From positions 1 to 64,000 of the IMG/VR virus record IMGVR_UViG_3300023179_003795: a DNA stretch of 64,000 bases, one strand, 5' to 3'. Every line of letters begins with the position of its first letter. The first letter of the stretch is position 1. Shown piece after piece: positions 2,657-44,235 of this stretch. This DNA comes from a virus (taxonomy: Duplodnaviria; Heunggongvirae; Uroviricota; Caudoviricetes). The notes below the pieces were generated by a model. That model was not told where the DNA came from. It searched no databases and was given only the letters and a program-made list of their open reading frames with translations. Position numbers and translations under genes: made by a program.

Positions 2657-2981
2657 TTGTCTTAAATGAATTTATTAAATTATCTATTTTAGTTAAATCT
2701 TTATTTTTTGAATCAAATTTTAATAGATGTTTTTGATAGTTTTTGACTAATAGTATCATTTCATCAAAATTATTCACAGCGTTTAAAATAAACACAGTGT
2801 CTTTTCTCGTATCAATAATATTTTGTTCATTCCTATTTTCCTCATCTTCTGCGGTTATTGTACCCACAAATAAACCATTTTGATCAACCAAATCAATTGA
2901 CCCGAATGTTTCCGAATCATTCTCATCATTTCTTTCTTCCATTGTTAAAGGAAGTTTCATATTTCTATCAAACATTACCAT
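2607..2981 (-). CDS. Hypothetical acidic protein
   Basis: 124 aa ORF. It overlaps the downstream ORF by 50 nt, so the true start may be an internal Met. Confidence 0.4.
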   Translation of the reverse strand: MVMFDRNMKLPLTMEERNDENDSETFGSIDLVDQNGLFVGTITAEDEENRNEQNIIDTRKDTVFILNAVNNFDEMILLVKNYQKHLLKFDSKNKDLTKIDNLINSFKTIDYDNGIPYNWSDIDI

Positions 2982-3247
2982 TTTTCAGGAACTCCATTTC
3001 CTATATCATTTTTTTTAAATCCAAATAAAACCCATCTATAATAAACCAATAAAATCACATTTACTGATATATTAAACCACGAAGCAATACCCATAGTTCC
3101 AATACCAAATAAAGGTAATAAACCTATTGTTATTGAAAATAACGTAAATGACAAACCAATAAAAATTAATCCTTTACTATTTTTAAAACAAATGGTTTGA
3201 TTATTAATCTCCCTTTCAGGAAACCATTCAACAATATAATTTCTCAT
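2975..3247 (-). CDS. Hypothetical membrane protein
   Basis: 90 aa with two or three hydrophobic helices (LIFIGLSFTLFSITIGLLPLFGIGTMGIASWF...). Confidence 0.45.
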   Translation of the reverse strand: MRNYIVEWFPEREINNQTICFKNSKGLIFIGLSFTLFSITIGLLPLFGIGTMGIASWFNISVNVILLVYYRWVLFGFKKNDIGNGVPEKW

Positions 3248-3297
3248 ATTTTTATATATAATAAATTAAAACCAAAAAAGGAAATATTTATAAAAAA

Positions 3298-5610
3298 ATG
3301 AGCGATATAAACAAAAATAAATTATTCATACCAATAACTGAATCGGAACAATCTAAGAAAGGTAAATTATTTATCCCTAGAAGATTATCAGGTGAAAATT
3401 CTAGATTTATCCAATGGAATAAGGAACAACCCATCGTAGATGGTGTTCAAATTAATCAATATACACATGATGGTAAAAAAGAAGGTATTTGGGAATTTTA
3501 TTACCCCAATGGACAATTAGATACAAAGGGTTCATTTAAAAATGATAATTATGATGGTATTTGGGAATATTATTATAGTGATGGTAAATTAGCTTCTAAG
3601 GGTTCTTATGAAAATAATAAAAAAACAGGTGTTTGGGAAGATTATTATAAAAATGGACAATTAGATTTTAAAGGTTCATTTAAAGATGGTAAAAAAAATG
3701 GTATATGGGAAAGTTATCACGATAATGGACAATTAAGGTACAAGGGTTCATATAAAAATGATAAACTAGATGGTATATGGGAAAGGTATTATAGTAATGG
3801 ACAATTAATGTTTAAAGGTTTATATAGAGATGATGAATTAATTAAATCATTACCATTAACCGAATCTGAACAACCAAAGAAAGGTAAATTATTCATACCT
3901 CGTAGATTATCAGGAGAGAATTCTAGATTTATCCAATGGAATAAGGAACAACCGATAGTTGATGGGGAACGTATTAATCAATATACACATGATGGTAAGA
4001 AAGAAGGATATTGGGAAGAAGTAGATGAAAATAATTTTTTTAGAGAAAACGGTTATTATAAAAATGGTAAAAAGGATGGTGTGTGGAAATATTTAGATTT
4101 TGATTTTATGTTATTAAGTGAAGGAACATTTAAAGATGGTAAAAAAAATGGTATATGGGAATATTATTGGAGATTTGATGGTTCATTAAAGTTAAAAGGT
4201 TTATATAAAGATGATATAAAAACAGGTATTTGGGAGTTTTATTATTATGATGAACAATTAGATAGTAAAGGTCAATTTAAGAATGATAGAAAAGATGGTA
4301 TATGGGAAGAATATTTTCCTAATGGGGGATTAAAAAGTAAGAAATTATTTGATGATGGTAAATTAATTAAAGAATTACCAATAACTGAATCAGAACAATC
4401 TAAAAAAGGTAAATTATTTATTCCTAGAAGATTATCAGGAGAGAATTCCCGATTTATCCAATGGAATAAGGAACAACCCATCGTAGATGGGAAACATATT
4501 AATCAATATACACATGATGGTAAGAAAATTGGTATATGGGAAAGGTATCATAAAAATGGACAATTATGGTCTAAAGGTTTATTTAAAGATGATAAAAAAG
4601 AAGGTATATGGGAATATTATCATTATGATGGACAATTAAGTTCTAAGGGTTTATATAAAGATGGTAAATATGATGGTATTTGGGAAAGTTATTATAGTAA
4701 TGGACAATTAGAATCTAAGGGTTTATATGAAGATGATTTAAAAAATGGTATATGGGAAGAATATAATATACGTGGTAATTTAGTGTTTAAAGGTTTATAT
4801 AGAGATGATGAATTAGTTAAAATATTACCAATAACTGAATCAAAAACCCCATCATTCTTATTAAAAGAAGAAATGGGTTTAATAAGGGAAGGGAATGTTC
4901 AGGATTATATCAATAACGTAATATCAAAAATTAAAAACTTATCTTATGAAACAAAAAAGAAATATATTTTAATAGCAATCTCAACCCTTTTAGGTTACAC
5001 ATCTTACCCTGTCATTCAATCAATGTTTGATAAATCACCAGATAAAGAAACAAAAGAAATTGTTCATAGAGTAATGAACAAAAAAAATAATTTTTCTATG
5101 TTTAAAGATGGAACAAAATTCCGTTTATCTAAAAAAGGTTTTCAACACATTATGGATGAAGAAAAACCAAAACTTATAACATACGCATTAGGTGATGGTA
5201 AAATTACTGTTGGTTATGGACACGCTGAACCGGTTGAAACAACCAAACTTAAAGTAGGTCAAAAAATAACTAAAGAACAAGCAAAATTATACCTTAAACA
5301 AGACCTTAAAATAGCCGCAGATGGTGTTAGAAGAATGTTTAATGATTGGAAAAAACAAGATAAAAACTATAAAGTTACTCAAGATATGTTTGATGCTTTA
5401 GTTTCAATGGCTTTTAATATGGGAGTATCAGGTCTTAGAAATACTAATTTAGTTGATTATCTTAGAGATGGTGATTATAAAACCGCAGGACAACTTATTA
5501 AACAAACAAATATTGATAATGATTCATTTCCAGGTCTTGAAAAAAGAAGAAATAAAGAATCCAATATGTTTTTATCGTATTTGTTACAAAAAAATAAAAT
5601 AAATGCTTAA
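3298..5610 (+). CDS. Modular MORN-repeat protein with a C-terminal GH24 (T4-type) lysozyme domain
   Basis: 770 aa. Three modules each begin with [IL]P[IL]TESEQ.KKGKLFIPRRLSGENSRFIQWNKEQPIVDG and are followed by about 6 MORN repeats (G.WE.YY.NGQL..KG.YK.G...G). The last about 150 aa (about 5155..5610) match T4 lysozyme blocks (TVGYGH ... RR.KESNMF versus T4 TIGIGH ... RAKRVITTF). The start is preceded by atatttataaaaaaATG. Confidence 0.85.
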   Translation: MSDINKNKLFIPITESEQSKKGKLFIPRRLSGENSRFIQWNKEQPIVDGVQINQYTHDGKKEGIWEFYYPNGQLDTKGSFKNDNYDGIWEYYYSDGKLASKGSYENNKKTGVWEDYYKNGQLDFKGSFKDGKKNGIWESYHDNGQLRYKGSYKNDKLDGIWERYYSNGQLMFKGLYRDDELIKSLPLTESEQPKKGKLFIPRRLSGENSRFIQWNKEQPIVDGERINQYTHDGKKEGYWEEVDENNFFRENGYYKNGKKDGVWKYLDFDFMLLSEGTFKDGKKNGIWEYYWRFDGSLKLKGLYKDDIKTGIWEFYYYDEQLDSKGQFKNDRKDGIWEEYFPNGGLKSKKLFDDGKLIKELPITESEQSKKGKLFIPRRLSGENSRFIQWNKEQPIVDGKHINQYTHDGKKIGIWERYHKNGQLWSKGLFKDDKKEGIWEYYHYDGQLSSKGLYKDGKYDGIWESYYSNGQLESKGLYEDDLKNGIWEEYNIRGNLVFKGLYRDDELVKILPITESKTPSFLLKEEMGLIREGNVQDYINNVISKIKNLSYETKKKYILIAISTLLGYTSYPVIQSMFDKSPDKETKEIVHRVMNKKNNFSMFKDGTKFRLSKKGFQHIMDEEKPKLITYALGDGKITVGYGHAEPVETTKLKVGQKITKEQAKLYLKQDLKIAADGVRRMFNDWKKQDKNYKVTQDMFDALVSMAFNMGVSGLRNTNLVDYLRDGDYKTAGQLIKQTNIDNDSFPGLEKRRNKESNMFLSYLLQKNKINA
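4377..4639 (+). repeat. About 263-bp segment identical (inverted) to 31083..31345
   Basis: Spot-checked nucleotide identity over the leader + first MORN repeats (KKGKLFIPRR ... EGIWEYYHYDGQL). A second about 85-bp identical block lies at about 4726..4812 / 30893..30979. Confidence 0.8.
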
Positions 5611-5630: not shown

Positions 5631-7472
5631 ATGGGATTTTTACAATTTTTATTCGAAGGTAGGGTTGATGATTTTAAAAAATTATTTAAGGACAAATATA
5701 CAACCCCTGAACAAATAGACGCTATTATCAAAGTTTCATCTGAAGTAGATGATAAACACAAATATTTAATTTGGTTAGCAAAAACACTTACCAAACCAGT
5801 ATTCAATAATGAAATTGCTTTCGGTGAAGAATTAGCGGAAGCACAAGAACTTCTAATGAAGTTTAAAACAATTGGTCCTAATCTACCAATTAAAGATATT
5901 TCACAATATAAAAACATATCTGAATTAGCAGACGCGATTAAAACTTACGAAAATAGACAAAGAAGAACAATTAAAAAGGTTGATGGTGCTGATATAATCT
6001 ATGATGACGATGATTATACAATTGTCCACCCAAAAGAATATTTCGCATCTTGTTATTACGGTGAAGGTTCTAAATGGTGTACATCATCTAAAAATACTGA
6101 TAGTCATTGGTATTCATATAATAAAGAAGCGAAATTGTTTTATTTTTTATCAAAGAAATTACCTACAAGTAATGACTTTTATAAAGTAGCGTTAGAACAA
6201 AAGTATGATGGAAAAAGAATTTTTTGGAATGCACCTGATAAACCTTTTGCTTCTGGTTGGATATTAGGGACTGATTATATGAACGATTTACTCGAAGTTG
6301 TAGATCAATATATGAAAGACAATTATTCAAGAGAAATTGGTATATTCTCAGACGAACAAAAAGCAAAAATTGAAGCAGAAATTGAAAGACAAAGATTACA
6401 AAGGATTGAAACCCAACGAATAATTAATCAAAAAAGAAGAGATGCTGAAAGTAGAAGGGAAACCGATGAATGGAATCCTGAAGAAGTTACTCACGGTGAA
6501 GTTGGATCACACGCTTGGGCTTTATTCACTTATTTAACCAGATATGAAAATCTTGTACCGAAAGAACCGGGAGATACCGAAAGACTTGAATTTATTAATT
6601 CTGAATTAGATAGGTTAGGTGAATTACAAAGTCAATATGAGGTTGAGGGTAGGGATTTAACTGGTATTGATGCTGAGATTTCAGCATTAGAAGAAGAAAA
6701 AGATGAGTTAGAAAAAAGAGTTGATGTATATGATATGATACCTGAAGGTGGTGATTATACTAATATGTCAAGATTTAGTGTGACAAATCCTGACTATGAT
6801 GGATATGAATGGACTGTCGGTGATGATGATCAAATTAAACAAGCCGCTTTTGATAGTGCTGAATCCTTAATTGACGACATAGGGTATGAAGGATTTAACA
6901 GTTATTTGGTTGAACGACATATTGATGCTGACGCTGTGGCTAGTGAGGCGAGAGATAGTTATGAATATTGGGTTCGTGATAATCCTGAGTCGTATTTAGA
7001 TGAAACAGATAGAGATTTAAGCAAATCACAACAAAAAGAGATTGGTGAATATCAAGAAAAGATTGATAAATACACTTCTTTCCGTGAAAAAGCAACTGAA
7101 CGTCAGGAAAATTATGATTCGGATAGTAGAGAATGGAAAGCACTTGAAAAGGGTATTGATAAACTAACGGATTTAATATCTGACCTTGAATATGATATTG
7201 AAAACATTAAAGAAGAACCGGATGGTGATTGGGATGAAGATAAAATTGAGGAAAAGATTGATGATTTGGTTGATGATGTAAAACGTAATCCATTAGATTG
7301 GTTAAAAGAAATGGGTATTGAAAAATATGATGATTATATAAATAAATATGAGTTTATTGAGGATATAATTGATTCTGATGGGTATTATCAAACATTAAAT
7401 AGTTATAATGGTGATGGTGATACTGTTGAATGGGATGGTGAGACATATCATATAATGAATACAGATAGATAA
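5631..7472 (+). CDS. Hypothetical protein; member 2 of the C-x-YG-x-G-T-K-W-C paralog family with a long acidic C-terminal extension
   Basis: Core is VHPKEYFASCYYGEGSKWCTSSKNTDSHWYSYNKEAKLFYFL. The track start at 5613 lies inside the gtatatttatatagat promoter-like motif. A start at 5631 (MGFLQ...) reproduces the gtatttatatagatATG arrangement seen at 23410 and 31389. The C-terminal about 350 aa are D/E-rich and coiled-coil-like. Confidence 0.65.
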   Translation: MGFLQFLFEGRVDDFKKLFKDKYTTPEQIDAIIKVSSEVDDKHKYLIWLAKTLTKPVFNNEIAFGEELAEAQELLMKFKTIGPNLPIKDISQYKNISELADAIKTYENRQRRTIKKVDGADIIYDDDDYTIVHPKEYFASCYYGEGSKWCTSSKNTDSHWYSYNKEAKLFYFLSKKLPTSNDFYKVALEQKYDGKRIFWNAPDKPFASGWILGTDYMNDLLEVVDQYMKDNYSREIGIFSDEQKAKIEAEIERQRLQRIETQRIINQKRRDAESRRETDEWNPEEVTHGEVGSHAWALFTYLTRYENLVPKEPGDTERLEFINSELDRLGELQSQYEVEGRDLTGIDAEISALEEEKDELEKRVDVYDMIPEGGDYTNMSRFSVTNPDYDGYEWTVGDDDQIKQAAFDSAESLIDDIGYEGFNSYLVERHIDADAVASEARDSYEYWVRDNPESYLDETDRDLSKSQQKEIGEYQEKIDKYTSFREKATERQENYDSDSREWKALEKGIDKLTDLISDLEYDIENIKEEPDGDWDEDKIEEKIDDLVDDVKRNPLDWLKEMGIEKYDDYINKYEFIEDIIDSDGYYQTLNSYNGDGDTVEWDGETYHIMNTDR

Positions 7473-7494: not shown

Positions 7495-8478
7495 ATGACA
7501 AAAAATGAAGCAAAAAGAGCCTTTTTGGATAAAGGTATATTGAAAAAAGATGCGTTTGATAGATTTTTAAATGAAGATCCAACAACACAAAAGAAATATG
7601 TGTTTTATATGATTAAACAATATTTAAAACAATCTGATGAAGAGGGTATTCAAGTATCTGATTTATCAGCAGATGATTTAAGTATGGGTATTTTATCACC
7701 TATATTTTCATATGTGACAGAATACAACACATTATTAAATAGAGTCCCACAAGATAAAAGAGATATATATAAATTATCTTATAATGAATTGGTTAGTATT
7801 GTTGATGAATTGAACACTTCTAGTGGTGAAACTGATAGATCGTCATTAAGGAAAAGAGCACGTGAAAATTCTGATAATTTTAATGAATTAGGTATTGTAG
7901 AGATTCCAGGTGTATTAGTTGTTGCACCATATAATCACGACGCTATTTGTTGGTATGGTCAAGGAACAAGATGGTGTGTGGCTATGGATTCCGCTCCAAA
8001 CCATTGGGTGAATTATTACACCACACAAAAAAATACTTTTTATATTATAAGTGCTACAAATGATGCCGTTAGAAACAAAATTAAAGAACATTATAAAAAT
8101 AAATGGGAACGAATGGGTTTAGGTAGACCAACAGGGAGTCCACCAAAAATAAAATGGGTGTTAGTTAAAAACGATAAAGACGTGTCTGAAATATCAACCG
8201 AAAATAAAAATGAAGCGGCTGAACTATTCAAAGAAAGATTAAATTTACCATCATTAAAAGGATATGATATTGAAAACTATGGTTATAGAAACCTATATAA
8301 AGTAGCGTTTTTAGTTCCACCAACAAGAGATAGTATGGGTGACGAAATAAAGAATGAAAAAGGTGAATATATACCTAATATGAAAAATGCACAGATTTTT
8401 TCTTCTGACGATATTTCATTTAATAATGGATGGGAAGAATACTTTAAAGTAATTGGTTTATATGATGTTTTTATTTAA
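7495..8478 (+). CDS. Hypothetical protein; member 3 of the C-x-YG-x-G-T-R-W-C paralog family
   Basis: 327 aa. Core is VVAPYNHDAICWYGQGTRWCVAMDSAPNHWVNYYTTQKNTFYII, with an N-terminal DPTTQKKY motif shared with other members. The start follows tatatttatatatATG. Confidence 0.7.
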   Translation: MTKNEAKRAFLDKGILKKDAFDRFLNEDPTTQKKYVFYMIKQYLKQSDEEGIQVSDLSADDLSMGILSPIFSYVTEYNTLLNRVPQDKRDIYKLSYNELVSIVDELNTSSGETDRSSLRKRARENSDNFNELGIVEIPGVLVVAPYNHDAICWYGQGTRWCVAMDSAPNHWVNYYTTQKNTFYIISATNDAVRNKIKEHYKNKWERMGLGRPTGSPPKIKWVLVKNDKDVSEISTENKNEAAELFKERLNLPSLKGYDIENYGYRNLYKVAFLVPPTRDSMGDEIKNEKGEYIPNMKNAQIFSSDDISFNNGWEEYFKVIGLYDVFI

Positions 8479-8485
8479 TAAAATT

Positions 8486-8511
8486 AAAACCCCTTTCATT
8501 GGGGTTTTTTT
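8486..8511 (+). terminator. Rho-independent terminator (aaaacccc-tttcatt-ggggtttt + T-run)
   Basis: Perfect 8-bp GC-centred stem with a 7-nt loop followed by TTTTTTT, directly after the stop of 7495..8478. Confidence 0.6.
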
Positions 8512-8534
8512 ATGTTTTAAACTATTTATATTCG

Positions 8535-8975
8535 ATGAAAAAGATTAAATTAACTGAACAAGATTTAACAAATATAGTTAAAAGAGTAATATCGGAGGAT
8601 GAAAATTCAAAAAAAGGTAAACTATTTATTCCAAGAAAAATTGATGAAAGAAAGATTGAACATCAAAAAATAATCGCTGGTGAAGTAGAAAAGATTAAAA
8701 AAAGTCCTTTTGGTTCAATATCAAAAAAATTTTTATTTGAGTGGTTACAGGAAAATAATTTAGAACAAGAACTAAAACTTTCTTACAAAGGTTCATCTTT
8801 AGGTGAAGTAGGTATGACATCATATGATAATTCAAAAGGTGAAGTTACCCTATATTTAGAATCAAAAGTAACATCTTTAGGTAATGTAGGGATACGTTTT
8901 AAAATATCCGACATTCAAATAGGGTATGTTGAACCAAATGTAATGGAAGATGATAAATTTTATCCAATAGATTAA
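8535..8975 (+). CDS. Hypothetical protein carrying the N-terminal leader (MKKIKLTEQDL ... KKGKLFIPRKIDERK)
   Basis: The track ORF starts at 8499, but that Met lies inside the terminator hairpin. The ATG at 8535 follows actatttatattcg and gives the conserved MK.I.LTE leader. Confidence 0.6.
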   Translation: MKKIKLTEQDLTNIVKRVISEDENSKKGKLFIPRKIDERKIEHQKIIAGEVEKIKKSPFGSISKKFLFEWLQENNLEQELKLSYKGSSLGEVGMTSYDNSKGEVTLYLESKVTSLGNVGIRFKISDIQIGYVEPNVMEDDKFYPID

Positions 8976-8977
8976 TT

Positions 8978-9451
8978 ATGAAAATACTTATAACTGAAGA
9001 ACAAAAAAAGAAGTTATTCATCCCAAGAAGGATTGATGAAAGAAAAGAACAATTTAAAAAAGAATTTTCTGAAAAAACCAAAGAATTATTATCTCATTTT
9101 AATATAACTGAAATAGTAAATCATGGTCGTATTGATGATTATGAAAATGAAATATCTGGTGAAGATATTGAAGAAGGTTATAGTAAAATTGTTATTGATG
9201 GTAAAAATTATTATGGATTTCCAAATTGGGAATTGGTTGAAGATTTAATCAATAACTGGGAAGAAATGTTAGCAGGATATTTAAATATGATTATACCACA
9301 ACCATCGGATGAAAGTATAAGTAAATCACAACCAAATATTGTTGGTAGAATGTTTAGGGTAGATATTACCCCATCAAAAATAGATATTAGTTTTTCTTGC
9401 TCAATTGTAGATTACATAAATAAAAAAGGTAATGAAACCATTACCCTTTAA
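8978..9451 (+). CDS. Hypothetical protein carrying the N-terminal leader (MKILITEEQKKKLFIPRRIDERK)
   Basis: 157 aa, starting 2 nt after the previous stop. The leader is identical in type to those at 23018..23410 and 30520..31389. Confidence 0.6.
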   Translation: MKILITEEQKKKLFIPRRIDERKEQFKKEFSEKTKELLSHFNITEIVNHGRIDDYENEISGEDIEEGYSKIVIDGKNYYGFPNWELVEDLINNWEEMLAGYLNMIIPQPSDESISKSQPNIVGRMFRVDITPSKIDISFSCSIVDYINKKGNETITL

Positions 9452-9683
9452 TATCATCAACCCAAATAGGGGTTTTTTCTCCAACGTAAGCACCTGAAAC
9501 ATTAAAATCAAAGTATTCAATAGCCTCCACCTCATTCATTTCCCTACAAAGAATTTCAATACATTTAGATACCGAATAAACCAATCTCATAGATTTAATA
9601 TCAATACCAATGAGAGCCTCATCAAAACCATCGGCTTTAAGGAAATTCTCATCAGGGTATTTTTCAATAATACTATCAATCAT
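9441..9683 (-). CDS. Hypothetical protein
   Basis: 80 aa ORF convergent with the plus-strand block; its ATGA start overlaps the stop of the next gene. Confidence 0.4.
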   Translation of the reverse strand: MIDSIIEKYPDENFLKADGFDEALIGIDIKSMRLVYSVSKCIEILCREMNEVEAIEYFDFNVSGAYVGEKTPIWVDDIKG

Positions 9684-10462
9684 TAGGATTTAGCCTTTAC
9701 ATTAGGTCTATCCTCAATGTGTTTGATAATCGAATCGTATACGTTAATAAACATTTCTTTGGTTCTAACACCAAATACAACGTCTTTTACTTCAGTTTTG
9801 GTATCCTGAACATTCCAAAATTCAATGTGTTTTTGAATCGCTGTAAACTTCTTACCTTTAGTATCTAATTGATTAAAATCAGAACTCAATTTATCGGATT
9901 GTAAATAAACACCAAAGGTTTCTTTCTGATGATTCTTCTTAGAGATAAAGTAAATCAATACATTCTTTGAGTAATTATAAAAGTGATTTGACGTATCTTT
10001 TGAAGCCGTACACCATTTGGTATTAGAACCATAGGTTAATGAAGCCTCATACGTTAAAGGTGTTCCAATCATATAATCATCATCTTCAAAATATTTATGG
10101 AATTCTTTCTCCCTACGTTTTAACTCACGTTGTTGTTTAGCAACTTCCAATACTTTATTGAAATCTTCAACAGATTTAAACTTAAAAATGTCCGAATCAG
10201 AACCCTTAATAAAGCCTTCTTTTACCAATTCATCAAAAGCAGCACAATCTTTGTTAAAATCGTTTTCCAACCAATCGGTAAATTCATCAAGAATTGATTT
10301 TTTAAGGTTTTCAATTTCATCAGTACAAGACACTAACCATTTAGTGTATTTAAACTGACTTGATTTGTTTTGAGAAGACGGATCATACTTTTTTAGTAAG
10401 TCCAAAAGATTGATGTTTAACTGATCTTTGTATTTTTCTTTGATTTCTGTTATACTAATCAT
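9683..10462 (-). CDS. Hypothetical protein; member 4 of the C-x-YG-x-x-T-K-W-C paralog family
   Basis: 259 aa. Core is GTPLTYEASLTYGSNTKWCTASKDTSNHFYNYSKNVLIYFI, with an N-terminal DPSSQNKSSQFKY motif and a basic RELKRREKE stretch before the core. Confidence 0.7.
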   Translation of the reverse strand: MISITEIKEKYKDQLNINLLDLLKKYDPSSQNKSSQFKYTKWLVSCTDEIENLKKSILDEFTDWLENDFNKDCAAFDELVKEGFIKGSDSDIFKFKSVEDFNKVLEVAKQQRELKRREKEFHKYFEDDDYMIGTPLTYEASLTYGSNTKWCTASKDTSNHFYNYSKNVLIYFISKKNHQKETFGVYLQSDKLSSDFNQLDTKGKKFTAIQKHIEFWNVQDTKTEVKDVVFGVRTKEMFINVYDSIIKHIEDRPNVKAKS

Positions 10463-11221: not shown

Positions 11222-12373
11222 TTAGTTAAGGTAAAAAGGTGTGTCTTTATATTCTTCCATTACTTCAGTAATACTATTATTACCGGTAAAATCGTCAATA
11301 TAATAATGAAGTCCATCAAAAATGAATGAGAATTCATCATCGCTCATATTGAATTTGGTTTTGTAATATTTTTTAATTTTTTCTTTGATTTCAGCCTGTG
11401 AAACATATTTTTTACCATTATTCCAACCATAGTTAGAACTCCCACTATAACCATAAGCGTATGCGTTATTGTAATTATTTCCAGAACCATAAGTGTATGT
11501 CGATTCTTGTTGTTCGAATACTTGTTTTTCATTACCCAATCTTTCAATAATAGCCACCGATAAATCATAAGCGATTTCAATACCATCAATTAAAACACAT
11601 TCGTTAGATGTGTGATATTGGTAATAAGCCGCAGGTAAATTAATACACTCAAAGTCAAATTTCTTAGTTAATTGACTAACATCGGTAAATGGATGACGAG
11701 CAAATATTCTTACACCATAATCGTATAATAAATCACCAATCTTACCCTCAAATCTTTCTCTACCTGTTTCTTCATCAATAACTACACCAGGTTTAGCCCA
11801 TTCACTACTGAATAACTGATAACCTGAACAATACCAAGAAATCGTATCATTTTCAGGTGAATCGTGTTGAATTGTGTAAGCAACATCGTTAAAGAATTCA
11901 GGATCAGCCTCTCTTGAACCGATACATCCAATTTCTTCTGAAATAAAGAAAGCACATTTCATAACGTCAAACTTATCCATTACCTCAAGAGCCAAGAAAA
12001 TACCCGCTTTATCATCACCCCCACAACCTGTTCTATTAGTTTTGGTGTGTGTTTTTCCTTTAACATAACCACGAAGAACTTGTTGTCCATCACATACACT
12101 TGAATAGTCATATTGACTCTTAATATAAGTTTCTTCAACAATTTCAATACCGTAAGAATCAATCTTATGAACCGTATCCATATGTGCAACCATACAAGGG
12201 TAATATTCAGATCTACCTTTTGTTAGGTAAATATTACCAATTTTGTCAGTATAATGTGGAATGTTACGAATTGTTGCCCAATCAGCAATGTATTTACGAA
12301 CCTTTTCTTCCCTACCAGATACCGATGGGATTGAAAGGATTTCTTTTAATCTTTCTAATTTATTATTATCCAT
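11222..12373 (-). CDS. M20/M28-type zinc metallopeptidase (peptidase T-like) with a low-complexity Y/G/N/S insert
   Basis: N-terminal LKEILSIPSVSGREEKVRKYI and GCGGDDKAGIFLALEVM plus FFISEEIGCIGS resemble the PepT motifs (GADDKAG, DEEIG). The C-terminal part contains YTYGSGNNYNNAYAYGYSGSSNYGWNNG. Confidence 0.55.
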   Translation of the reverse strand: MDNNKLERLKEILSIPSVSGREEKVRKYIADWATIRNIPHYTDKIGNIYLTKGRSEYYPCMVAHMDTVHKIDSYGIEIVEETYIKSQYDYSSVCDGQQVLRGYVKGKTHTKTNRTGCGGDDKAGIFLALEVMDKFDVMKCAFFISEEIGCIGSREADPEFFNDVAYTIQHDSPENDTISWYCSGYQLFSSEWAKPGVVIDEETGRERFEGKIGDLLYDYGVRIFARHPFTDVSQLTKKFDFECINLPAAYYQYHTSNECVLIDGIEIAYDLSVAIIERLGNEKQVFEQQESTYTYGSGNNYNNAYAYGYSGSSNYGWNNGKKYVSQAEIKEKIKKYYKTKFNMSDDEFSFIFDGLHYYIDDFTGNNSITEVMEEYKDTPFYLN

Positions 12374-23017: not shown

Positions 23018-23410
23018 TTATAGTTTATATGTTTTACTATCATTCCTTAATTCACTTACTTCGTAATCAAAAGACACTAATAATTTATTTTCTTCAGTTA
23101 TATCTATATCACCCCATATGTGGAATATACCATCAATTCGATCAGCAATCCCTTCAATTAATTTATAAACCGGAGTTTCAAACTCATATAATTCACGGTG
23201 ATTATTACCCCCATCAAAGACACCATGCATATACCAATTCCATTCGTCAGGAGTTGTACTCATATCAAATCGAACACTTGTTTCATTATCTTTTATATAT
23301 TGAAGAACAGGATTCATTCCAATTTCAGATAAATATTGTCTATCCCTTTCATCAATTCTCCTGGGGATAAATAACTTCTTTTTTTGATCTTCACTAATAA
23401 TAATTTTCAT
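23018..23410 (-). CDS. Hypothetical protein carrying the N-terminal leader (MKIIISEDQKKKLFIPRRIDERDRQ)
   Basis: 130 aa. The start is embedded in the reiterated terminator-promoter cassette; the first codons are near-identical at the DNA level to the start of 30520..31389. Confidence 0.6.
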   Translation of the reverse strand: MKIIISEDQKKKLFIPRRIDERDRQYLSEIGMNPVLQYIKDNETSVRFDMSTTPDEWNWYMHGVFDGGNNHRELYEFETPVYKLIEGIADRIDGIFHIWGDIDITEENKLLVSFDYEVSELRNDSKTYKL

Positions 23411-23467
23411 ATCTATATAAATACTTCAGAACATAAAAAAACCCCAATAAAGGGGTTTTAATTTTTT
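23411..23467 (-). promoter_or_regulatory. Terminator-promoter cassette (hairpin aaaacccc-aataaa-ggggtttt, then T-tract, then gtatttatatagatATG)
   Basis: About 68 nt identical to 31374..31442. Read on the minus strand it is a GC-centred hairpin, a U-tract, a TATTTATAT motif, then ATG 4 nt later. Confidence 0.55.
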
Positions 23468-24184
23468 TTATATTAACATTTTCAATCCATCCTTTTCACA
23501 TATATACCCATCCGTATTATTAAGTATCATTTTATTATCAAAGATATGGACATTATTTTCAACCACACAAATCATATAGTCAATATTATGATACAATTTA
23601 TTTATACCATTATATTTAATCTCATATGAATTATCATCATTTAATACGATTGATGAACAAGTTTTAATTTGAGCCTTGAATTCTTTACCATTCTTAATAT
23701 TCTTAATGGTAATGTCATAACCACCAATCATATCATTCAAATCACCTAATTTACCAACACTAATTACTTCATAACCACCTTTAGATTCGAAATGTTTTTT
23801 TAATTTGACTACAACTAAATCTTCTTTTTTACCACCTTTAGATGACGTGTATTGGATTTTATCAGTTATTTTAGGTAACATACCAATCCAATGCCATTTA
23901 TCACTTAATACGTAATCCATCATAGTTTCATACCCTTCTTTAGTTGATGGGTTGAAATTAATCTTAGTGAGGGTTTCATCGACTATTATACCATAAGCCA
24001 AAAAATTAGTATTGATATAATTTAATATACTTTCCTCCTCACATTTATTTGTTTTAAATATTCTTGGTTGTCTATACCCTCCCACTTCTTTTAATAGTTG
24101 TGGATGGTGAGCTTCAAATATCCTTATGTAGTCGTTTTTGAATATCTTAAAACCAATGGTTTCTTTTAATTCTTTCCAGTTCAT
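23468..24184 (-). CDS. Hypothetical protein
   Basis: The track ORF (to 24274) begins inside a palindromic terminator hairpin. The start at 24184 (MNWKELKETIG...) follows tgtataaatattaaatatATG (TATAAATA). Confidence 0.5.
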   Translation of the reverse strand: MNWKELKETIGFKIFKNDYIRIFEAHHPQLLKEVGGYRQPRIFKTNKCEEESILNYINTNFLAYGIIVDETLTKINFNPSTKEGYETMMDYVLSDKWHWIGMLPKITDKIQYTSSKGGKKEDLVVVKLKKHFESKGGYEVISVGKLGDLNDMIGGYDITIKNIKNGKEFKAQIKTCSSIVLNDDNSYEIKYNGINKLYHNIDYMICVVENNVHIFDNKMILNNTDGYICEKDGLKMLI

Positions 24185-27517: not shown

Positions 27518-28693
27518 TTATCTAACCATATCAATACCACCCTTTTCAATCCTATCCAAAGTGTAAATCTCCAACTCAGTTCTTAACCTATCTTCACTTT
27601 TTATTTTTTCATACCTGTGTTGTGATTTGTTTTTCCACCATTCAATCATATTTGACAAATGGTATCTATCCCAATTTTCTTTTTTCTCTAAAGGTATACT
27701 CCCACCACTTTTAATATATTCAAAAACATTTTCATAACCATATGTGGAGTAATAATACCTCTTTTTGGTTTTAGATTTCATATTGGTATTTGTGAATTTA
27801 TTAAATGTAACATATAATTCATTATCATAAACTTTTAAATGGTTTTTAATGATGGAAATCATTTTGTTAAATTCTCTGAGTTTAGGACCCGAACCTTTTG
27901 GATCTACCAATGAACCACCCCACTCCGATTTACCAAAATGTTGTCTTAAAAAATCCCTTATTTCCATATATATGTTTTCATTTGGAAATAAAAATAAATC
28001 AGAATCAGTCATACTACCATACCTCATGAAAGGTCTTAGACCATCATATTGACTAACACCCTTTATATCACCATACAATGACGTTGTTTCCATGAATAAA
28101 GTTTCTATTTTATCCCCATATTTTTCATTTAAAATATTTCTAACTTCGTGTGATGAACATATTAACGCTAATAACTTTCCACCCAAATAATTATAACCAA
28201 ACGGTTGTACTGGTACAATGATAGATCCATTTATCATATATCTATTCACCTCATTAGCTGTTAGTCTAAAATCATCAAAAAGGATATTTCTCGGTTTTAT
28301 TGATATAACCGGTGATGATAATCTAATAAATCCAACATATTTATTGGTTGTTGTTTCTTTAACACCCAACATAATTTGTCTACCAATCTGAGATTCCAAA
28401 GGTAGTGAAATTATAATTTGAGTCATAGGGTTAAATAATTTACCATCAATAACCTCAAGTTTAAAATTCATATCTTTTGGTTCTATTGTGTAATCATCAA
28501 ACATTAAATCAACCCATTTAGTGTAGTCAATATCAACAATCTTTTCTTTCTTTCTTTCCAAAAAATAATCCTGTATACCAGTCAATTTTTCGTAAAATGA
28601 TGTTAATTTATTCGCCAAACCAATTGTTTCTTCTTGAGTTAATTTAATATTGTTATTTCCTATTGTTTCTGTATGTTCCATAATGAAAAACAT
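27518..28693 (-). CDS. Hypothetical protein
   Basis: 391 aa. I recognise no domain; the block VPVQPFGYNYLGGKLLALICSSHEV is unassigned. Confidence 0.5.
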   Translation of the reverse strand: MFFIMEHTETIGNNNIKLTQEETIGLANKLTSFYEKLTGIQDYFLERKKEKIVDIDYTKWVDLMFDDYTIEPKDMNFKLEVIDGKLFNPMTQIIISLPLESQIGRQIMLGVKETTTNKYVGFIRLSSPVISIKPRNILFDDFRLTANEVNRYMINGSIIVPVQPFGYNYLGGKLLALICSSHEVRNILNEKYGDKIETLFMETTSLYGDIKGVSQYDGLRPFMRYGSMTDSDLFLFPNENIYMEIRDFLRQHFGKSEWGGSLVDPKGSGPKLREFNKMISIIKNHLKVYDNELYVTFNKFTNTNMKSKTKKRYYYSTYGYENVFEYIKSGGSIPLEKKENWDRYHLSNMIEWWKNKSQHRYEKIKSEDRLRTELEIYTLDRIEKGGIDMVR

Positions 28694-30304: not shown

Positions 30305-30523
30305 ATGAAAAATCAATATAAACAAAGACAGAGACAGATTGAAAAATCAATTAAAGGTGATCATATTCAAAATCAAGACTATTTCTTAGATTTAATGATT
30401 TTACAAGAAAAACGTAAGAAAAAAGAAAGTAAACCCAGATTGGTTTTAAAAAATGGTCAATTAAACATTAAAAGATTGTTTAATAATGGGGTTCCTTTTA
30501 GTTGGGAAGATAACCCCCTTTAA
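30305..30523 (+). CDS. Hypothetical basic small protein
   Basis: 72 aa, starting 4 nt after the previous stop. Confidence 0.4.
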   Translation: MKNQYKQRQRQIEKSIKGDHIQNQDYFLDLMILQEKRKKKESKPRLVLKNGQLNIKRLFNNGVPFSWEDNPL

Positions 30524-31389
30524 TGGGAGTTGTAGGTTTCTAATAATTCCCTTATTTCAATTAATTGTTCTAATTTAAGTTCTTCGTATTTAACCGGAAA
30601 AGATGTTTCTTCTGTATTGTATTTATACCCACCATATACTACAACTTCAACATGATCAGAATAAAATTGTTCAATTAAGGCAACTTCATTTTCTTCATCT
30701 TCAGGACTATACCCATAAACAATTGAATTACCACCCAATTCACCCATACTTATAAAACCTTCTTCTTCTTCAATTATTTCTTTAATCTCAGAAATATATT
30801 TTTGTTTTAGTTCTTCAGCCTCAATCTTTCGTTGATCAATTCTTCTAGGGATAAATAATTTACCTTTTTTAGATTGTTCCGATTCAGTTAGTGACATCAT
30901 TTTAATTAATTCATCATCTCTATATAAACCTTTAAACACTAAATTACCACGTATATTATATTCTTCCCATATACCATTTTTTAAATCATCTTTAAATGAA
31001 CCCCTTTCATATAATTTCCCATTTCCATAATATTCTTCCCATACACCATCTCTTTTACCATTAATATAACTTCCTTTATATTTTAATTGTCCATCATAAT
31101 GATAATATTCCCATATACCTTCTTTTTTATCATCTTTAAATAAACCTTTAGACCATAATTGTCCATTTTTATGATACCTTTCCCATATACCAATTTTCTT
31201 ACCATCATGTGTATATTGATTAATATGTTTCCCATCTACGATGGGTTGTTCCTTATTCCATTGGATAAATCGGGAATTCTCTCCTGATAATCTTCTAGGA
31301 ATAAATAATTTACCTTTTTTAGATTGTTCTGATTCAGTTATTGGTATGAATAATTTCTTTTTTTGTTCTTCAGTTATAATAATTTTCAT
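30520..31389 (-). CDS. MORN-repeat protein with N-terminal leader and an internal second leader copy
   Basis: 289 aa starting MKIIITEEQKKKLFIPITESEQSKKGKLFIPRRLSGENSRFIQWNKEQPIVDG, followed by 5-6 MORN repeats, a second LTESEQSKKGKLFIPRRIDQRK and an acidic C-terminal domain. About 90 aa are identical to part of 3298..5610. Confidence 0.75.
   Translation of the reverse strand: MKIIITEEQKKKLFIPITESEQSKKGKLFIPRRLSGENSRFIQWNKEQPIVDGKHINQYTHDGKKIGIWERYHKNGQLWSKGLFKDDKKEGIWEYYHYDGQLKYKGSYINGKRDGVWEEYYGNGKLYERGSFKDDLKNGIWEEYNIRGNLVFKGLYRDDELIKMMSLTESEQSKKGKLFIPRRIDQRKIEAEELKQKYISEIKEIIEEEEGFISMGELGGNSIVYGYSPEDEENEVALIEQFYSDHVEVVVYGGYKYNTEETSFPVKYEELKLEQLIEIRELLETYNSH
31083..31345 (-). repeat. Inverted copy of 4377..4639
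   Basis: See the paired feature. Confidence 0.8.
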
Positions 31390-31442
31390 ATCTATATAAA
31401 TACTTCAGAACATAAAAAAACCCCAATAAAGGGGTTTTAATT
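31390..31442 (-). promoter_or_regulatory. Terminator-promoter cassette, second copy
   Basis: Identical over about 68 nt to 23395..23462, including the hairpin aaaacccc-aataaa-ggggtttt and gtatttatatagatATG. Confidence 0.55.
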
Positions 31443-32387
31443 CTATTTAGATTTTTTTAACATCATTTTCTTATATCTTTGTCCTTTAACAGCCAAAGTG
31501 TGTGTATCTTTTATGTTAGTATCACTATATTTTTTAAATAATTGAATGGTTTTATTAAACATTCCAATCATTAATTTAATATCAGCCAAAGCGTTATGCC
31601 ATTCATCAATGTTTATTTTAAAGGCTGGTACCACAACACCCATAGAAGTTGAATAATACTTCTTTTCTTTCATTCTTGGAGTTCCATCAGGATTTAACTT
31701 AGGTTGTTTTGTTTTCCAATCCAAATCAGGTTCCATTACATTCCCATCAGGTCCTTTAACAGGTGTTAATAACTTACCTAAAAATTCACCAGCCAATTGA
31801 TTTCCACCTTTTTTTAATGACTTTAACATTGGTAAAAAGAATAATTTTAATATGTTATTTGTATCTAATACTGAAACATTTAATGGTTTTAATCCATATA
31901 GTTTCATTCGTGTATTAACCATTTTCATATCAAATGGTGCGTTATGAGCAATTAATATTGGTTTATCATATGAATTAACAAAGTTTGAAAAGTTTTCCAA
32001 TAAACTTTTTTCATCATAATAACTTCTTGTTCCGGGTGTTTCACCAAACCTTGTCATTTTAAGAACATCTCTTGGATCTTGAAACCTCTCACTAACCTTA
32101 ATCTTAGACCTCCAATTTTCATATTCAGAAGTTCCAGGTTTCATTCTTTTTTCAATATTGGGTAATAACTTAACTTTTTCGTAAAACTTGTCTAATACGT
32201 TAAAATTATTAAACTCACAAACCAAAGCCGCTATTTCTGTTAATTGTTCTGTTCTTGGTGAAAACCCTGTTGTTTCCGTATCAAAAAAGATAAGTGTATT
32301 ATCATTTAACCCTTCAATATAAACCAATACATCTTCAATTGACATACCGAAAAATCTACCTTTTTTTAATGATTTTTTCATAACCAC
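31443..32387 (-). CDS. DEDDh 3'-5' exonuclease (DnaQ/epsilon-like)
   Basis: 314 aa with Exo I IFFDTETTG, Exo II IAHNAPFDMKM and Exo III HNALADIKLM. Confidence 0.8.
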   Translation of the reverse strand: MVMKKSLKKGRFFGMSIEDVLVYIEGLNDNTLIFFDTETTGFSPRTEQLTEIAALVCEFNNFNVLDKFYEKVKLLPNIEKRMKPGTSEYENWRSKIKVSERFQDPRDVLKMTRFGETPGTRSYYDEKSLLENFSNFVNSYDKPILIAHNAPFDMKMVNTRMKLYGLKPLNVSVLDTNNILKLFFLPMLKSLKKGGNQLAGEFLGKLLTPVKGPDGNVMEPDLDWKTKQPKLNPDGTPRMKEKKYYSTSMGVVVPAFKINIDEWHNALADIKLMIGMFNKTIQLFKKYSDTNIKDTHTLAVKGQRYKKMMLKKSK

Positions 32388-38082: not shown

Positions 38083-40290
38083 TTATTTACTTTTAAAGTG
38101 ACTTAACATTGTATAAACTCCAGCACTTTTTATAATTGTCATAAATGCTTCCATAAAATCAACATTTCCTAACAAACTATTTATTAAGTCTGAATAAGCC
38201 GGTATTAATGTAGCGAAAGCCGTAATTGATAACATTTCATTTTTAAAATCTTTCAATGATTTATTTTTTCTTAAATAAACAACAATCATAGCAATTACTA
38301 AATTAGTTAATTCAAACGAATTTAATGGTTGAACAGTGTATTGTTTAATAAGTGATGTTAAATTTCTTATTAAAGCATTTATCCCACCACCAAATGTCAT
38401 TAAAAATCCAATATCCAATCCAAAAGTTTTTTTAAAATTTTTTAATATATCATCTATATTATCATTTATCTTACCTTCATTAATATTTTTAGTTAATGGT
38501 AATTCTTCATTATATAATTTTTTAAACTCTTCCCACACTTCTTTACCTTTTAAAGGTATTGTTAAATCAAAATACATTAGATTTAAAGGTCCATATTCTG
38601 ATATATCATCAGGGAAACTATCCTTTATTCTTAAAATCATATTATCGTAAATATTTTGCATATTGTCACTATCACTAAAATCAAATTCTTCCGAATCATT
38701 AAATACATCCCAATAAGTAACAAACAAATTAATTGTATTACCAGCATTTATATCACCTTCACCCCACCTACCAATCATATTACGGGTAGTTAAATCATAT
38801 TGATTTATTTTTTTACCATCAATAATAGGTTGCATTTCATTCCATTCTTTTAATCTTTCGTCAATTCTTCTCGGTATAAAAAGTTTACCTTTTTTAGGGT
38901 GTTCAGATTCATCTATGGTTTCAATGGTATATTCCTTATCAGTTGTTTCAAGTCCCAATTTATATATTTTTTCAATTAAACCACTTCTTCTCATAGTTTT
39001 AAAAACAAGATTTTCAGTCGCCATTTCACCACCTTTATCCAAACCAGCCTTCCTATATTTCTTTATCTTATCCTTTAACTTATCCAAAGCCTTTCTGGTT
39101 TCCTCATATTTTTCCTCTTTATATGACTCAACAATTCTATTATATTCACTTTCAAATTGTCTTACCTTTTTCTTAATAGTTTCTCTATCAATTTTTACAT
39201 CTTGAGGTTTTGGTTTCTTAACCCACTCATCATTCATAACGGAATATATACCAGTACTTTCGTGTGGTTCATCTTTATCCTGAGCATATAATTCAACATC
39301 ATATCCTTTTATCTTAATATTATGATTGTCATTCCAAACCGCTTTTTTAGCGTCAAAATACTTCTTAATTAATTCCTTATCATCAAACTCATTAAAGTCT
39401 ATAAGAACGTGTAAATCCACATCCGAATATTGACTCCAATTATAATTAGCCAAAGAACCTGTAAATATAATATCTTCAATAGGTGCTTCCACCTCCAATG
39501 ACTTATGAAATTCTTGTCCGATAGCAACTAATGTGTCTTTTATCTTATTTTTTAATTTACCATCTTCATCCCATACTTTAGGGTTTAATTCCTTTTTAGG
39601 TTCAAATGATTTTAATATATTATCTTTATCTTCCATTTGTTCTTTTATTACCATATTATCGTATTCATCTTTCCAATTCATACTTTCACTAACACCACCA
39701 TCCTTATTATAAAAAATATGAGCAATTTTTTTAGACATATCATAAATAGTTTTACCCGCTACCTTACCATTCATAAAATAATCAACCCATAAACCATCAA
39801 CTTTACCATTAATATAATTACCAATACTACTTAATAAATTATTGTTTTCAAATTGGTTATTAAATGGGTAATACGTTTTCCATATACCAACAGGGCTACT
39901 ATCAACATAACTACCAATTTCTTTTAAATTACCATTTTGATGATACATTTTCCATAAACCATCAAGCTCACCATCTTTTGTTTGTCCATCATATTGGATT
40001 TGACCATTAAGGTAAAATGTTTGATACACACCTCCCCATAAACCATTTTTATATTCTATTCTAGACGTTATTTTATTTTTTTCAAACTCAACCCATAAAC
40101 CATCTTTTTTACCATTAAGTGTATATTGATTTATCTGAACACCATCTACGATGGGTTGTTCCTTATTCCATTGGTTGAATCTACTATTTTCACCGGATAA
40201 TCTACGAGGAATGAATAATTTACCTTTTTTAGATTGTTCCAATTCAGTTAGAGGTAACTTTTTAAATAATTTTTTTTTTACATCACTCAT
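38083..40290 (-). CDS. Multidomain protein: leader + MORN repeats + minimal nucleotidyltransferase (GS-x-SDVDL) domain + second internal leader + C-terminal hydrophobic region
   Basis: 735 aa. N-terminus is LPLTELEQSKKGKLFIPRRLSGENSRFNQWNKEQPIVDG followed by MORN repeats. Mid-protein FTGSLANYNWSQYSDVDLHVLIDFNEFDD matches the pol-beta-type NTase motif G[SG]-x9-13-D-x-D. Later comes HPKKGKLFIPRRIDERLKEWNEMQPIIDG, and the C-terminal about 100 aa are hydrophobic (FLMTFGGGINALIRNLT ... LVIAMIVVYL). Confidence 0.75.
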   Translation of the reverse strand: MSDVKKKLFKKLPLTELEQSKKGKLFIPRRLSGENSRFNQWNKEQPIVDGVQINQYTLNGKKDGLWVEFEKNKITSRIEYKNGLWGGVYQTFYLNGQIQYDGQTKDGELDGLWKMYHQNGNLKEIGSYVDSSPVGIWKTYYPFNNQFENNNLLSSIGNYINGKVDGLWVDYFMNGKVAGKTIYDMSKKIAHIFYNKDGGVSESMNWKDEYDNMVIKEQMEDKDNILKSFEPKKELNPKVWDEDGKLKNKIKDTLVAIGQEFHKSLEVEAPIEDIIFTGSLANYNWSQYSDVDLHVLIDFNEFDDKELIKKYFDAKKAVWNDNHNIKIKGYDVELYAQDKDEPHESTGIYSVMNDEWVKKPKPQDVKIDRETIKKKVRQFESEYNRIVESYKEEKYEETRKALDKLKDKIKKYRKAGLDKGGEMATENLVFKTMRRSGLIEKIYKLGLETTDKEYTIETIDESEHPKKGKLFIPRRIDERLKEWNEMQPIIDGKKINQYDLTTRNMIGRWGEGDINAGNTINLFVTYWDVFNDSEEFDFSDSDNMQNIYDNMILRIKDSFPDDISEYGPLNLMYFDLTIPLKGKEVWEEFKKLYNEELPLTKNINEGKINDNIDDILKNFKKTFGLDIGFLMTFGGGINALIRNLTSLIKQYTVQPLNSFELTNLVIAMIVVYLRKNKSLKDFKNEMLSITAFATLIPAYSDLINSLLGNVDFMEAFMTIIKSAGVYTMLSHFKSK

Positions 40291-43860: not shown

Positions 43861-44235
43861 TTATCTCATTAATAACACACCTATAATTATTCCAGGTAAT
43901 ATACCATAAGTAAAATATAAAGTTTTTTTCATTACACCCATAGTTTTATAATCTGTTATAATACCCTTATAGTTTTCTTCGTTTTCTTTAAACTTATCAA
44001 TCACCTCTTCATGTCCGGTAATTATTATACTATCCTTTGTAATTACATCTTTATAATCCATAATTACAGAATCTTGTTGTTTAATAATTTCAGTTTTAGT
44101 TGAATCCTGATACTTTAATTGTTTTATGTTGTGAGCAATATTAATTAATTCAGGTCTTGTAAAACACGTATCCACCTTTTGTGAATAAACATTTATCGTA
44201 ATAAATGTAAATAATAACATTAATAATTTTCTCAT
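43861..44235 (-). CDS. Secreted/membrane protein with signal peptide and C-terminal TM (o-spanin-like position)
   Basis: 124 aa with a signal peptide LLMLLFTFITINVYSQ and a C-terminal LYFTYGILPGIIIGVLLMR. It overlaps the upstream gene by ATGA. There is no clear lipobox. Confidence 0.35.
   Translation of the reverse strand: MRKLLMLLFTFITINVYSQKVDTCFTRPELINIAHNIKQLKYQDSTKTEIIKQQDSVIMDYKDVITKDSIIITGHEEVIDKFKENEENYKGIITDYKTMGVMKKTLYFTYGILPGIIIGVLLMR

Follow-up and report, generated by a model that had tools for sequence, protein, structure and literature searches.

In phage T4, several unrelated internal proteins (IPI, IPII, IPIII and Alt) share a short N-terminal capsid-targeting sequence, MKTYQEFIAE, which ends in I-x-E and in which residues 4 and 7 direct the targeting, and these proteins are processed by gp21, a prohead protease that cuts after Glu in L/I-x-E. 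The proteases of phiKZ, 201phi2-1 and SPN3US likewise cut after Glu, often repeatedly in one protein, and that of SPN3US favours Ser at P1'. In this study, we analysed a 64,000-nt stretch of DNA from a virus of the Caudoviricetes (positions 1 to 64,000 of IMG/VR record IMGVR_UViG_3300023179_003795; hereafter the window), in which one open reading frame (ORF) encodes a long protein with joints of a comparable kind. This gene, ORF770 (3298..5610, plus strand), reads from an ATG start into 770 aa and 90.6 kDa, and its product consists of three modules, each with a short leader peptide and an array of MORN repeats, followed by a helical region and a predicted muramidase of glycoside hydrolase family 24 (GH24). 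The leader is shared by many other proteins, and we tentatively suggest that ORF770 encodes a precursor from which cargo of the virion would be cut.

The first-pass annotation of the locus had described three reiterated MORN modules that end in a GH24 lysozyme. This build was borne out by Pfam matches to MORN_2 (PF07661; 132.9 bits against a cut-off of 29.6) and, at residues 627-754, to Phage_lysozyme (PF00959; 80.5 bits, cut-off 22.3), and by the DNA itself, which holds three repeats with a period of 522-525 nt, an identity of 72-81% and a sub-period of 72 nt. The MORN_2 repeats are fewer than the six or so per module given before: we counted 5+5+4, 14 in all, each with a G-x-W core. The NCBIfam matches were all sub-threshold. 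A product identical to that of ORF770 was also called on a 161,854-bp metagenome contig in ENA (ERZ3460577, NODE_135), and syntenic relatives from other samples share its build; ORF770 is therefore no assembly artefact.

All features of ORF770 lie on the plus strand. Residues 7-12 (3316..3333) form a partial N-terminal leader copy, NKLFIP, which is the scar of a 45-nt tandem duplication; the relatives begin MSDINKKKLFIPRK and have a single leader copy only. The first junction and leader, IPITESEQSKKGKLFIPRR (residues 11-29, 3328..3384; candidate cut after E15), leads into MORN module 1 (residues 30-182, 3385..3843), in which an N-cap helix (SRFIQWNKEQPIVDG) is followed by five MORN_2 repeats. 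The second, LPLTESEQPKKGKLFIPRR (residues 185-203, 3850..3906; candidate cut after E189), opens the five repeats of module 2 (residues 204-357, 3907..4368), and the third, LPITESEQSKKGKLFIPRR (residues 360-378, 4375..4431; candidate cut after E364), the four repeats of module 3 (residues 379-507, 4432..4818), so that the module limits lie at about residues 11-184, 185-359 and 360-509. Copies of KLFIP begin at residues 8, 23, 197 and 372, and ITE or LTE triplets occupy residues 13-15, 187-189, 362-364 and 512-514. A fourth site, ITESKTP, had been noted before the lysozyme; its [IL]-x-E-S part is in place at junction 4 (LPITES within LPITESKTP; residues 510-515, 4825..4842; candidate cut after E514), but the KLFIPR part is absent. 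The lysozyme part has a second candidate cut site, after E531, in I-R-E-G (residues 529-532, 4882..4893). Next come the conserved helical region of the lysozyme family (residues 532-605, 4891..5112), with an amphipathic helix and a short hydrophobic stretch, and the muramidase domain of the GH24 or T4-lysozyme fold (residues 606-764, 5113..5589).

Throughout the internal joints, [ILM]-x-E is followed by S, D, T, E or G. Over about 60 distinct junctions P3 and P1 are kept, while P2 varies (T, S, D, N, Y, K, V, F and G). The distance from joint to KLFIPR is 4-10 residues, and 6-7 at the first three joints of ORF770, whose triplets (ITE, LTE, ITE, ITE and IRE) all conform to L/I-x-E. In its relatives, junction 4 reads L-Y-E-S, L-N-E-S, M-V-E-S, L-K-E-S, L-S-E-S or M-T-E-S. 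Stand-alone lysozymes of the same family, which have neither MORN repeats nor KLFIPR, carry Y-[ILVM]-x-E-[SG] (consensus Y-I-N-E-S); the Glu, equivalent to E531, was found in 90 of 90 sequences as the sole invariant residue upstream of the catalytic domain, and in 70 of 87 members it lies 27-29 residues from the N-terminus. We modelled the joints of ORF770 with AlphaFold2 (AF2) over residues 340-530. The MORN repeats came out as a beta-hairpin solenoid with a predicted local distance difference test (pLDDT) above 90, leader 3 as mostly coil (pLDDT 59-63) and junction 4 with a pLDDT of 42-68; in the model, the joints are thus low-confidence linkers. Judged from their residues, the joints look like candidate cut sites of a T4-type head protease. 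A cut within the 'IDER' continuation of the leader (KLFIPRR-IDE-R) was considered as well and rejected, because its Glu is not conserved (IDQR, IDDR, IDGR, IEGR).

The C-terminal domain is, by prediction, a GH24 muramidase. PHROG assigned residues 541-764 to phrog_7 ('endolysin') and gave a weak match to phrog_2083 ('internal virion lysozyme motif', 1.4e-5). The AF2 model of the domain has a pLDDT above 90, and Foldseek matched it with a probability of 1.0 to 6H9D, 6ET6, 9KBQ, 2ANV and 3HDE (target TM-scores 0.70-0.85); its nearest folds are endolysins. Like P22 lysozyme, AcLys (6ET6), AbLys1 (8APP), R21, P1 Lyz and T4 lysozyme, it has the fold, the catalytic Glu and Thr, and G-x-G-H. E622 (5161-5163) aligns with the catalytic Glu of the solved GH24 enzymes (E11 of T4 lysozyme), and together with D633 (5194-5196), T637 (5206-5208; T26 of T4 lysozyme) and the G-x-G-H motif it is invariant in an alignment of 90 sequences. 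The catalytic Glu called for by the first-pass annotation is thus present. The canonical Y-x-D position of the catalytic Asp (D20 of T4 lysozyme) is taken by L631, and an invariant Asp, D633, stands two residues further on, in G-D-G, which gives the family a spacing of E-x10-D-x3-T as against the canonical E-x8-D-x5-T. The domain further differs from the known GH24 lysozymes in its upstream helical region of about 90 aa and in having neither a signal-anchor (SAR) segment nor a classical wall-binding domain. The Pfam and PHROG searches and the AF2 models showed no OB-fold N-domain and no C-terminal beta-helix of the baseplate hub type.

A search with residues 508-770 gave 248 relatives. Among the best 120 of them, 89 were stand-alone proteins of about 257-283 aa; these are 42-53% identical, and some lie on contigs as long as 633 kb. 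The last ~256 aa of ORF770 are one member of an autonomous, widespread family of about 260 aa, to which the MORN modules are optional N-terminal additions. One to three modules are fused to the lysozyme in P0023, P0140, P0141, L001 and L002; P0039 has none, following a deletion between leader and junction; and in L003/P0032-38 and P0049/68/70 unrelated N-domains take their place. What had been called an alpha-helical linker is in fact part of the lysozyme family, whose members conserve it over about 90 aa. When 1.84 billion representatives were searched with the helical region as a single sequence for its occurrence with other enzymes, only four close relatives and one junk repeat were returned. 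The genomic surroundings of the stand-alone lysozymes are accessory regions and were uninformative. Most members of the lysozyme family begin M[KR]H[IL]S.[FY]. On the 111-kb contig L006, which encodes the stand-alone lysozyme P0109, 5-6 of 30 ORFs begin M[KR][HY]L..FE.F, a second shared N-terminal tag that recalls MKTYQEFIAE; we take this as a resemblance only. The same cargo seems to bear different shared N-terminal tags in different clades, which fits a logic of cargo plus tag.

The leader, with the consensus [ILM]-x-E-S...K-L-F-I-P-R-[RK], is not confined to ORF770. In a six-frame scan of the window for LFIP[RK], we found 10 copies in six ORFs that are otherwise unrelated. The N-terminal form is MKI[IL]I[TS]E[ED]QKKKLFIPRR and the internal form [LI]P[IL]TESEQ.KKGKLFIPRR, and the copies diverge at synonymous sites. 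Two small tandem genes on the plus strand bear it, the first within 8499..9451 with a likely start at 8535 (MKKIKLTEQ...SKKGKLFIPRK) and the second at 8978-9451 (MKILITEEQKKKLFIPRRIDER), as does the N-terminus (MKIIISEDQKKKLFIPRRIDER) of a 130-aa protein (23018..23410, minus strand). A 289-aa protein (ORF289; 30520..31389, minus strand) is made up of a double leader, a MORN module whose DNA is near-identical to that of module 3, a further leader and an acidic domain. The 735-aa product of ORF735 (38083..40290, minus strand) has a leader, MORN repeats, a Pol-beta-type nucleotidyltransferase-like domain, another leader, a domain of unknown function and a hydrophobic C-terminus. On these cargo domains Pfam gave a weak Pol-beta nucleotidyltransferase signal and nothing else.

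The orthologues of ORF735 have the same domains, that is MORN, nucleotidyltransferase-like (G-S...D-V-D), 'RWGEGD' and the hydrophobic C-terminus, in permuted order and with leaders at every join. Two of them, L083 (980 aa) and L009 (1668 aa), illustrate how domain orders differ and how the MORN modules range from one to five. The nucleotidyltransferase-like domain was also seen as a stand-alone protein in Lak megaphages. In L034, L070, L057 and L079, a 46-aa zinc-ribbon-like module (C-x2-C...C-x2-C) stands N-terminal to the leader and is followed by MORN repeats and a 220-aa domain of unknown function. A scan of metagenomes with degenerate DNA gave 64 loci, about 54 of them true. Leaders often come in arrays of 3-5, in ORFs that range from 286 to 1668 aa. 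Over the window and the metagenome and IMG/VR loci, KLFIPR occurs in 101 copies that represent 52 DNA versions, with 2-5 codons for each residue, and this indicates that selection acts on the leader peptide. We conclude from these sequences that the leader is a clade-wide tag that is specific neither to ORF770 nor to MORN modules. Both this tagging of unrelated proteins and the stand-alone nature of the lysozyme family had escaped the first-pass annotation, and a full-text literature search for KLFIPR, LFIPRK and LFIPRR returned no relevant paper.

Among the described systems, the T4 internal proteins come closest. They too have a short N-terminal peptide with I-x-E on unrelated proteins of one phage, their cargo is diverse and fast-evolving, T4 has the same type of portal, and L/I-x-E matches every joint found here. 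However, the leader MKIIITEEQKKKLFIPRR is unrelated to MKTYQEFIAE, and an invariant KLFIPR follows the putative cut, so that the leader system is at most an analogue and not a member of the T4 capsid-targeting family. Moreover, T4 internal proteins are cut once, whereas the tags here are reiterated in long ORFs, in arrays of up to five; the putative cargo includes a muramidase and MORN arrays. The ejection (E) or inner-body proteins of phiKZ, 201phi2-1 and SPN3US, which gp175/gp245 cut at several S/A-x-E sites, resemble the present case in the multiple Glu sites of large head proteins, the long propeptides (111-254 aa), the preference for Ser at P1' and the occurrence of paralogous families in jumbo phages. 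They differ in that P3 is A, S or G, while here it is I, L or M as in T4; there is no sequence similarity; and their propeptides are disposable, whereas in ORF770 the N-terminal portion folds as MORN domains, which separate genes encode as well.

Two further comparisons concern the domains. The MORN modules share with MORN_2/YwqK-like proteins (annotated as antitoxin of YwqJK) the repeat of 23-24 residues, G-x-W-x-x-Y...G, and the sources name their relatives YwqK antitoxin component; unlike these, they are phage-borne, leader-tagged cassettes fused to enzymes, and no toxin partner was seen. The internal virion protein gp16 of T7 and its kind provide a precedent for a wall-degrading domain that is carried in the head and ejected. 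In T7, however, this is a lytic transglycosylase within a podovirus core protein of about 1300 aa that has no leader and no cleavage, and the similarity to ORF770 is limited to the catalytic domain.

With some reservation, we favour the reading that ORF770 is a precursor of virion cargo proteins processed by a head protease, which we hold to be the likeliest account while placing it somewhat short of an even chance. Late in infection, the gene would be expressed as a chain of four independent units, and the shared leader would draw it into the assembling prohead as the capsid-targeting sequence does with the T4 internal proteins. There, a prohead protease of the T4 gp21 type, which we assume, would cut after E15, E189, E364 and E514, and perhaps after E531. 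The products would be three YwqK-like MORN proteins, each beginning SEQ.KKGKLFIPRR (residues 16-189, 20.5 kDa; 190-364, 21.0 kDa; 365-514, 17.8 kDa), and a basic GH24 muramidase of 29.5 kDa (residues 515-770, 256 aa), or of 27.5 kDa (residues 532-770, 239 aa) if the cut after E531 occurs; the lysozyme fragment of about 17 kDa proposed before is too small. The cut products would stay in the particle as cargo and leave with the DNA. We infer the targeting, the cleavage, the presence in the virion and the role after ejection from the following.

The units are autonomous and are separated by conserved L/I-x-E joints. Syntenic orthologues have 0, 1, 2 or 3 modules or unrelated N-domains, and such freedom of module number and order, which emerged when the domain order of related phages was compared as the first-pass annotation had proposed, is as expected if the units work apart. 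The window encodes a T4-type portal (PF07230, 228 bits) adjoining the large terminase (TerL), and the portal gene has the same upstream motif, TATTTATA, as ORF770. To this extent the earlier idea of a processed polyprotein that delivers a virion lysozyme is sustained, but no gene for a prohead protease or a major capsid protein was found in the window, the related loci or the 10 kb that adjoin the window on its right. The Pfam and PHROG scans covered 50 different ORFs of the window. The closest portals are those of Microcystis phage Mel-JY01 (40%) and Flavobacterium phage immuto (36%), and the latter has a gp21-type protease and a gp23-type capsid protein beside its portal; against the window, all loci and the same adjoining 10 kb, tblastn with these two proteins gave no match. 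A 247-aa ORF adjoining the portal had no relative in the PDB. The 'peptidase' at 11222-12373 (minus strand), two genes downstream of the portal, was considered as prohead protease and discarded, since it is an aminopeptidase of the M20/M42 type with relatives in Cellulophaga and Bacillus phages.

Besides the failure to find these head genes, which leaves the protease as an assumption, several points weigh against such a precursor. A tblastn search with ORF770, ORF157 and ORF735 against 50,697 phage records found no cultured relative with the leader or the full architecture. KLFIPR lies downstream of the putative cut and would stay on the products, whereas the T4 tag lies upstream and is removed; the precursor reading does not account for this placement of KLFIPR. 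Some N-termini have KLFIPR directly after Met, without [IL]-x-E. The motif [IL]-x-E is also short, and I, L and E are frequent in this AT-rich proteome (the window has 24-32% G+C); IWES occurs twice within MORN strands of ORF770. Common descent links the leader copies, and counts of them are therefore not independent evidence. Finally, a muramidase stored in the head has no obvious task in a phage with a T4-type portal. The entry lysozymes of myoviruses known so far are on the baseplate. Degradation of peptidoglycan at entry, which had been put forward for this enzyme, would be awkward for a phage with a contractile tail, where head contents would exit through the tail tube.

It is also possible, if less likely, that ORF770 is an uncleaved multidomain late protein. 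In that case the MORN repeats, N-terminal to the catalytic domain, would be binding or localisation modules for the envelope, a membrane or a protein partner, as in the modular endolysins of jumbo phages of Gram-negative hosts, the leader would be a basic and hydrophobic short linear motif within a flexible linker, with the inner membrane or a shared partner as its docking site, and the lysozyme would act as a second endolysin by way of a holin. This would agree with the names endolysin and lysozyme given to the domain by PHROG and the source annotations, with the endolysins among its closest folds, and with the leader, since KKGKLFIPRR combines five basic residues with three hydrophobic ones and comes out as coil in the model. 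MORN-repeat proteins include adhesins (a match of the LIC20035 type, below the cut-off), and the same modules are joined to other enzymes. What it does not explain is the invariant Glu with a free P2 at the joints, together with E531 in the family that lacks MORN repeats, nor the free number of modules (0-3) and order of domains, nor the same N-terminal tag on small single-domain proteins.

The putative holin of such a protein could be the neighbouring 90-aa protein with two membrane helices (2975-3247, minus strand), which is transcribed divergently from ORF770; it is kept in L001 and L002, but it matches no holin or other family and is absent from L003. The amidase gene of the window has the same upstream motif as ORF770. 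However, this Amidase_2 (191 aa; 45084-45659, minus strand; 37 bits, cut-off 26) had already been named as the better candidate for lysis, and we agree: in a putative lysis cassette (43861-45659, minus strand), it is followed by a 175-aa ORF and then by two membrane-helix proteins, one of 103 aa with the helix at its N-terminus and weak matches to Rz-like spanins (E ~0.02), the other of 124 aa with the helix at its C-terminus. From their content, these genes make a likelier lysis cassette than ORF770.

Another explanation, which we regard as improbable, is that the leader is an evolutionary by-product, the conserved 5' end of a growing paralogous family that served as a recombination site for in-frame fusions, with the internal leaders as functionless scars. 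The internal leaders do resemble the N-terminal ones minus Met (MKIIITEEQKKKLFIP versus PITESEQSKKGKLFIP), MMS is retained at one junction, and there are partial and duplicated leaders, the deletion derivative P0039, the near-identical DNA of module 3 and ORF289, and a terminator-plus-promoter cassette repeated beside three leader genes. Yet scars should decay, whereas KLFIPR is held through all its DNA versions and [IL]-x-E is held at variable spacing. Junction 4 and the stand-alone family, moreover, keep the motif although neither offers any KLFIPR DNA for recombination. Such a history would cover the origin of the leaders and not their maintenance, and it is compatible with either functional reading.

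A SAR or signal-anchor endolysin, with helix 553-575 in the inner membrane, the lysozyme outside, the 550-aa MORN part in the cytoplasm and the two-helix neighbour as pinholin, is very improbable and largely refuted. It is true that KKK precedes a hydrophobic stretch (YILIAISTLLGY, 4963-4998) with many S, T and G residues, that the fold matches include R21 and P1 Lyz and that the two-helix neighbour is present. But the stretch gives no credible membrane span (its Kyte-Doolittle mean across 19 residues is 1.24 and its Hessa sum +6.0, where the R21 and P1 Lyz controls score 2.07-2.11 and +0.7-0.8), 46 of 90 family members have Lys inside it, which leaves about 9-10 hydrophobic residues, AF2 places it among four helices (pLDDT 76-86), and the segment begins at residue 553 and is not N-terminal. 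A membrane anchor of any kind at this stretch was rejected for the same weak hydrophobicity.

The motif TATTTATA lies 5 nt upstream of the ATG of ORF770 (3285..3292, plus strand) as a putative phage promoter or short-leader element. There are 38 copies in the window against 24 expected, and 16 of the 38 sit 3-9 nt before an ORF start: at 3285, 5618, 7484, 8523 and 63363 on the plus strand and at 15368, 17575, 20076, 23009, 23416, 31395, 35093, 40297, 45071, 45669 and 53025 on the minus strand. Among the genes behind it are ORF770, the remaining leader genes where these come first in a transcription unit, the genes for the portal and Amidase_2, and the gene that precedes TerL. It probably marks a phage-specific class of promoters or short leaders, to judge from its placement. 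A repeated intergenic cassette, AATTAAAACCCCTTT(C)ATTGGGGTTTTTTTATGTT...TATTTATA...ATG, joins a terminator-like hairpin to the motif and stands 5' of three leader genes (~8470-8534, plus; 23411-23470 and 31390-31450, minus). T4-type phages have mobile promoter stem-loop cassettes that it resembles. Boxes of the Bacteroidota -7 type (TAnnTTTG) were found upstream of the sigma-70-like gene (49109-49891, minus; box before 49891) and the ClpB/C-like gene (48680, minus), and they suggest that the host polymerase transcribes early genes and that the host belongs to the Bacteroidota. A protein with a type IX secretion system (T9SS) tail adjoins one lysozyme relative, and the boxes and this protein together make a Bacteroidota host likely.

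The window further encodes PhoH, a ClpB/C-like ATPase, RNA ligases, the sigma-70-like factor, an N6/N4 DNA methylase (57783-58610, minus), a DruA-like protein (27518-28693, minus; PF14236, 6e-13) and an Eco47II-like restriction endonuclease domain (61672-62235, minus). Seven paralogues have a G-x-G-[ST]-[KR]-W-C motif (phrog_17056 / phrog_28193, function unknown), at 1181-2173, 9683-10462, 33907-35085, 36205-37596 and 41889-43673 on the minus strand and at 5631-7472 and 7495-8478 on the plus strand, the last two directly 3' of ORF770.

GH24 enzymes, MORN_2 repeats, and the tagging and Glu-specific processing of head proteins are already known. If experiments confirm the precursor, what would be new is the tag, the way it is reiterated into trains and placed after the putative cut, and the set of cargo. 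A wider proposal, which we offer with somewhat less confidence than the precursor itself, is that a clade of uncultured large phages, probably of Bacteroidota hosts, may use an undescribed system, made of the invariant K-L-F-I-P-R-[RK] tag and the [I/L]-x-E-S site, to string interchangeable cargo into polyproteins of any length and order. These would enter the head, be separated there by the prohead protease and pass into the next host, which would turn the T4 capsid-targeting principle into a modular 'cargo train'. Its cargo, on this speculative view, would comprise YwqK-like MORN proteins, a Pol-beta-type nucleotidyltransferase, a GH24 muramidase and small unknown proteins, with the muramidase as the first GH24 enzyme packaged in the head of a myovirus-like phage. 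Should the precursor reading be wrong, there would still be a conserved short linear motif, so far undescribed, that many late proteins in one phage clade carry. If it is true, a tag of six residues and a cut site of three would suffice to load arbitrary proteins, singly or in trains, into the head of a large phage, and the T4 capsid-targeting principle would extend to a distant lineage as a compact system of protein delivery. The MORN/YwqK-like modules and the nucleotidyltransferase would then be candidate injected effectors, and the ejected, perhaps anti-defence, proteins of uncultured jumbo phages would become predictable from sequence alone.

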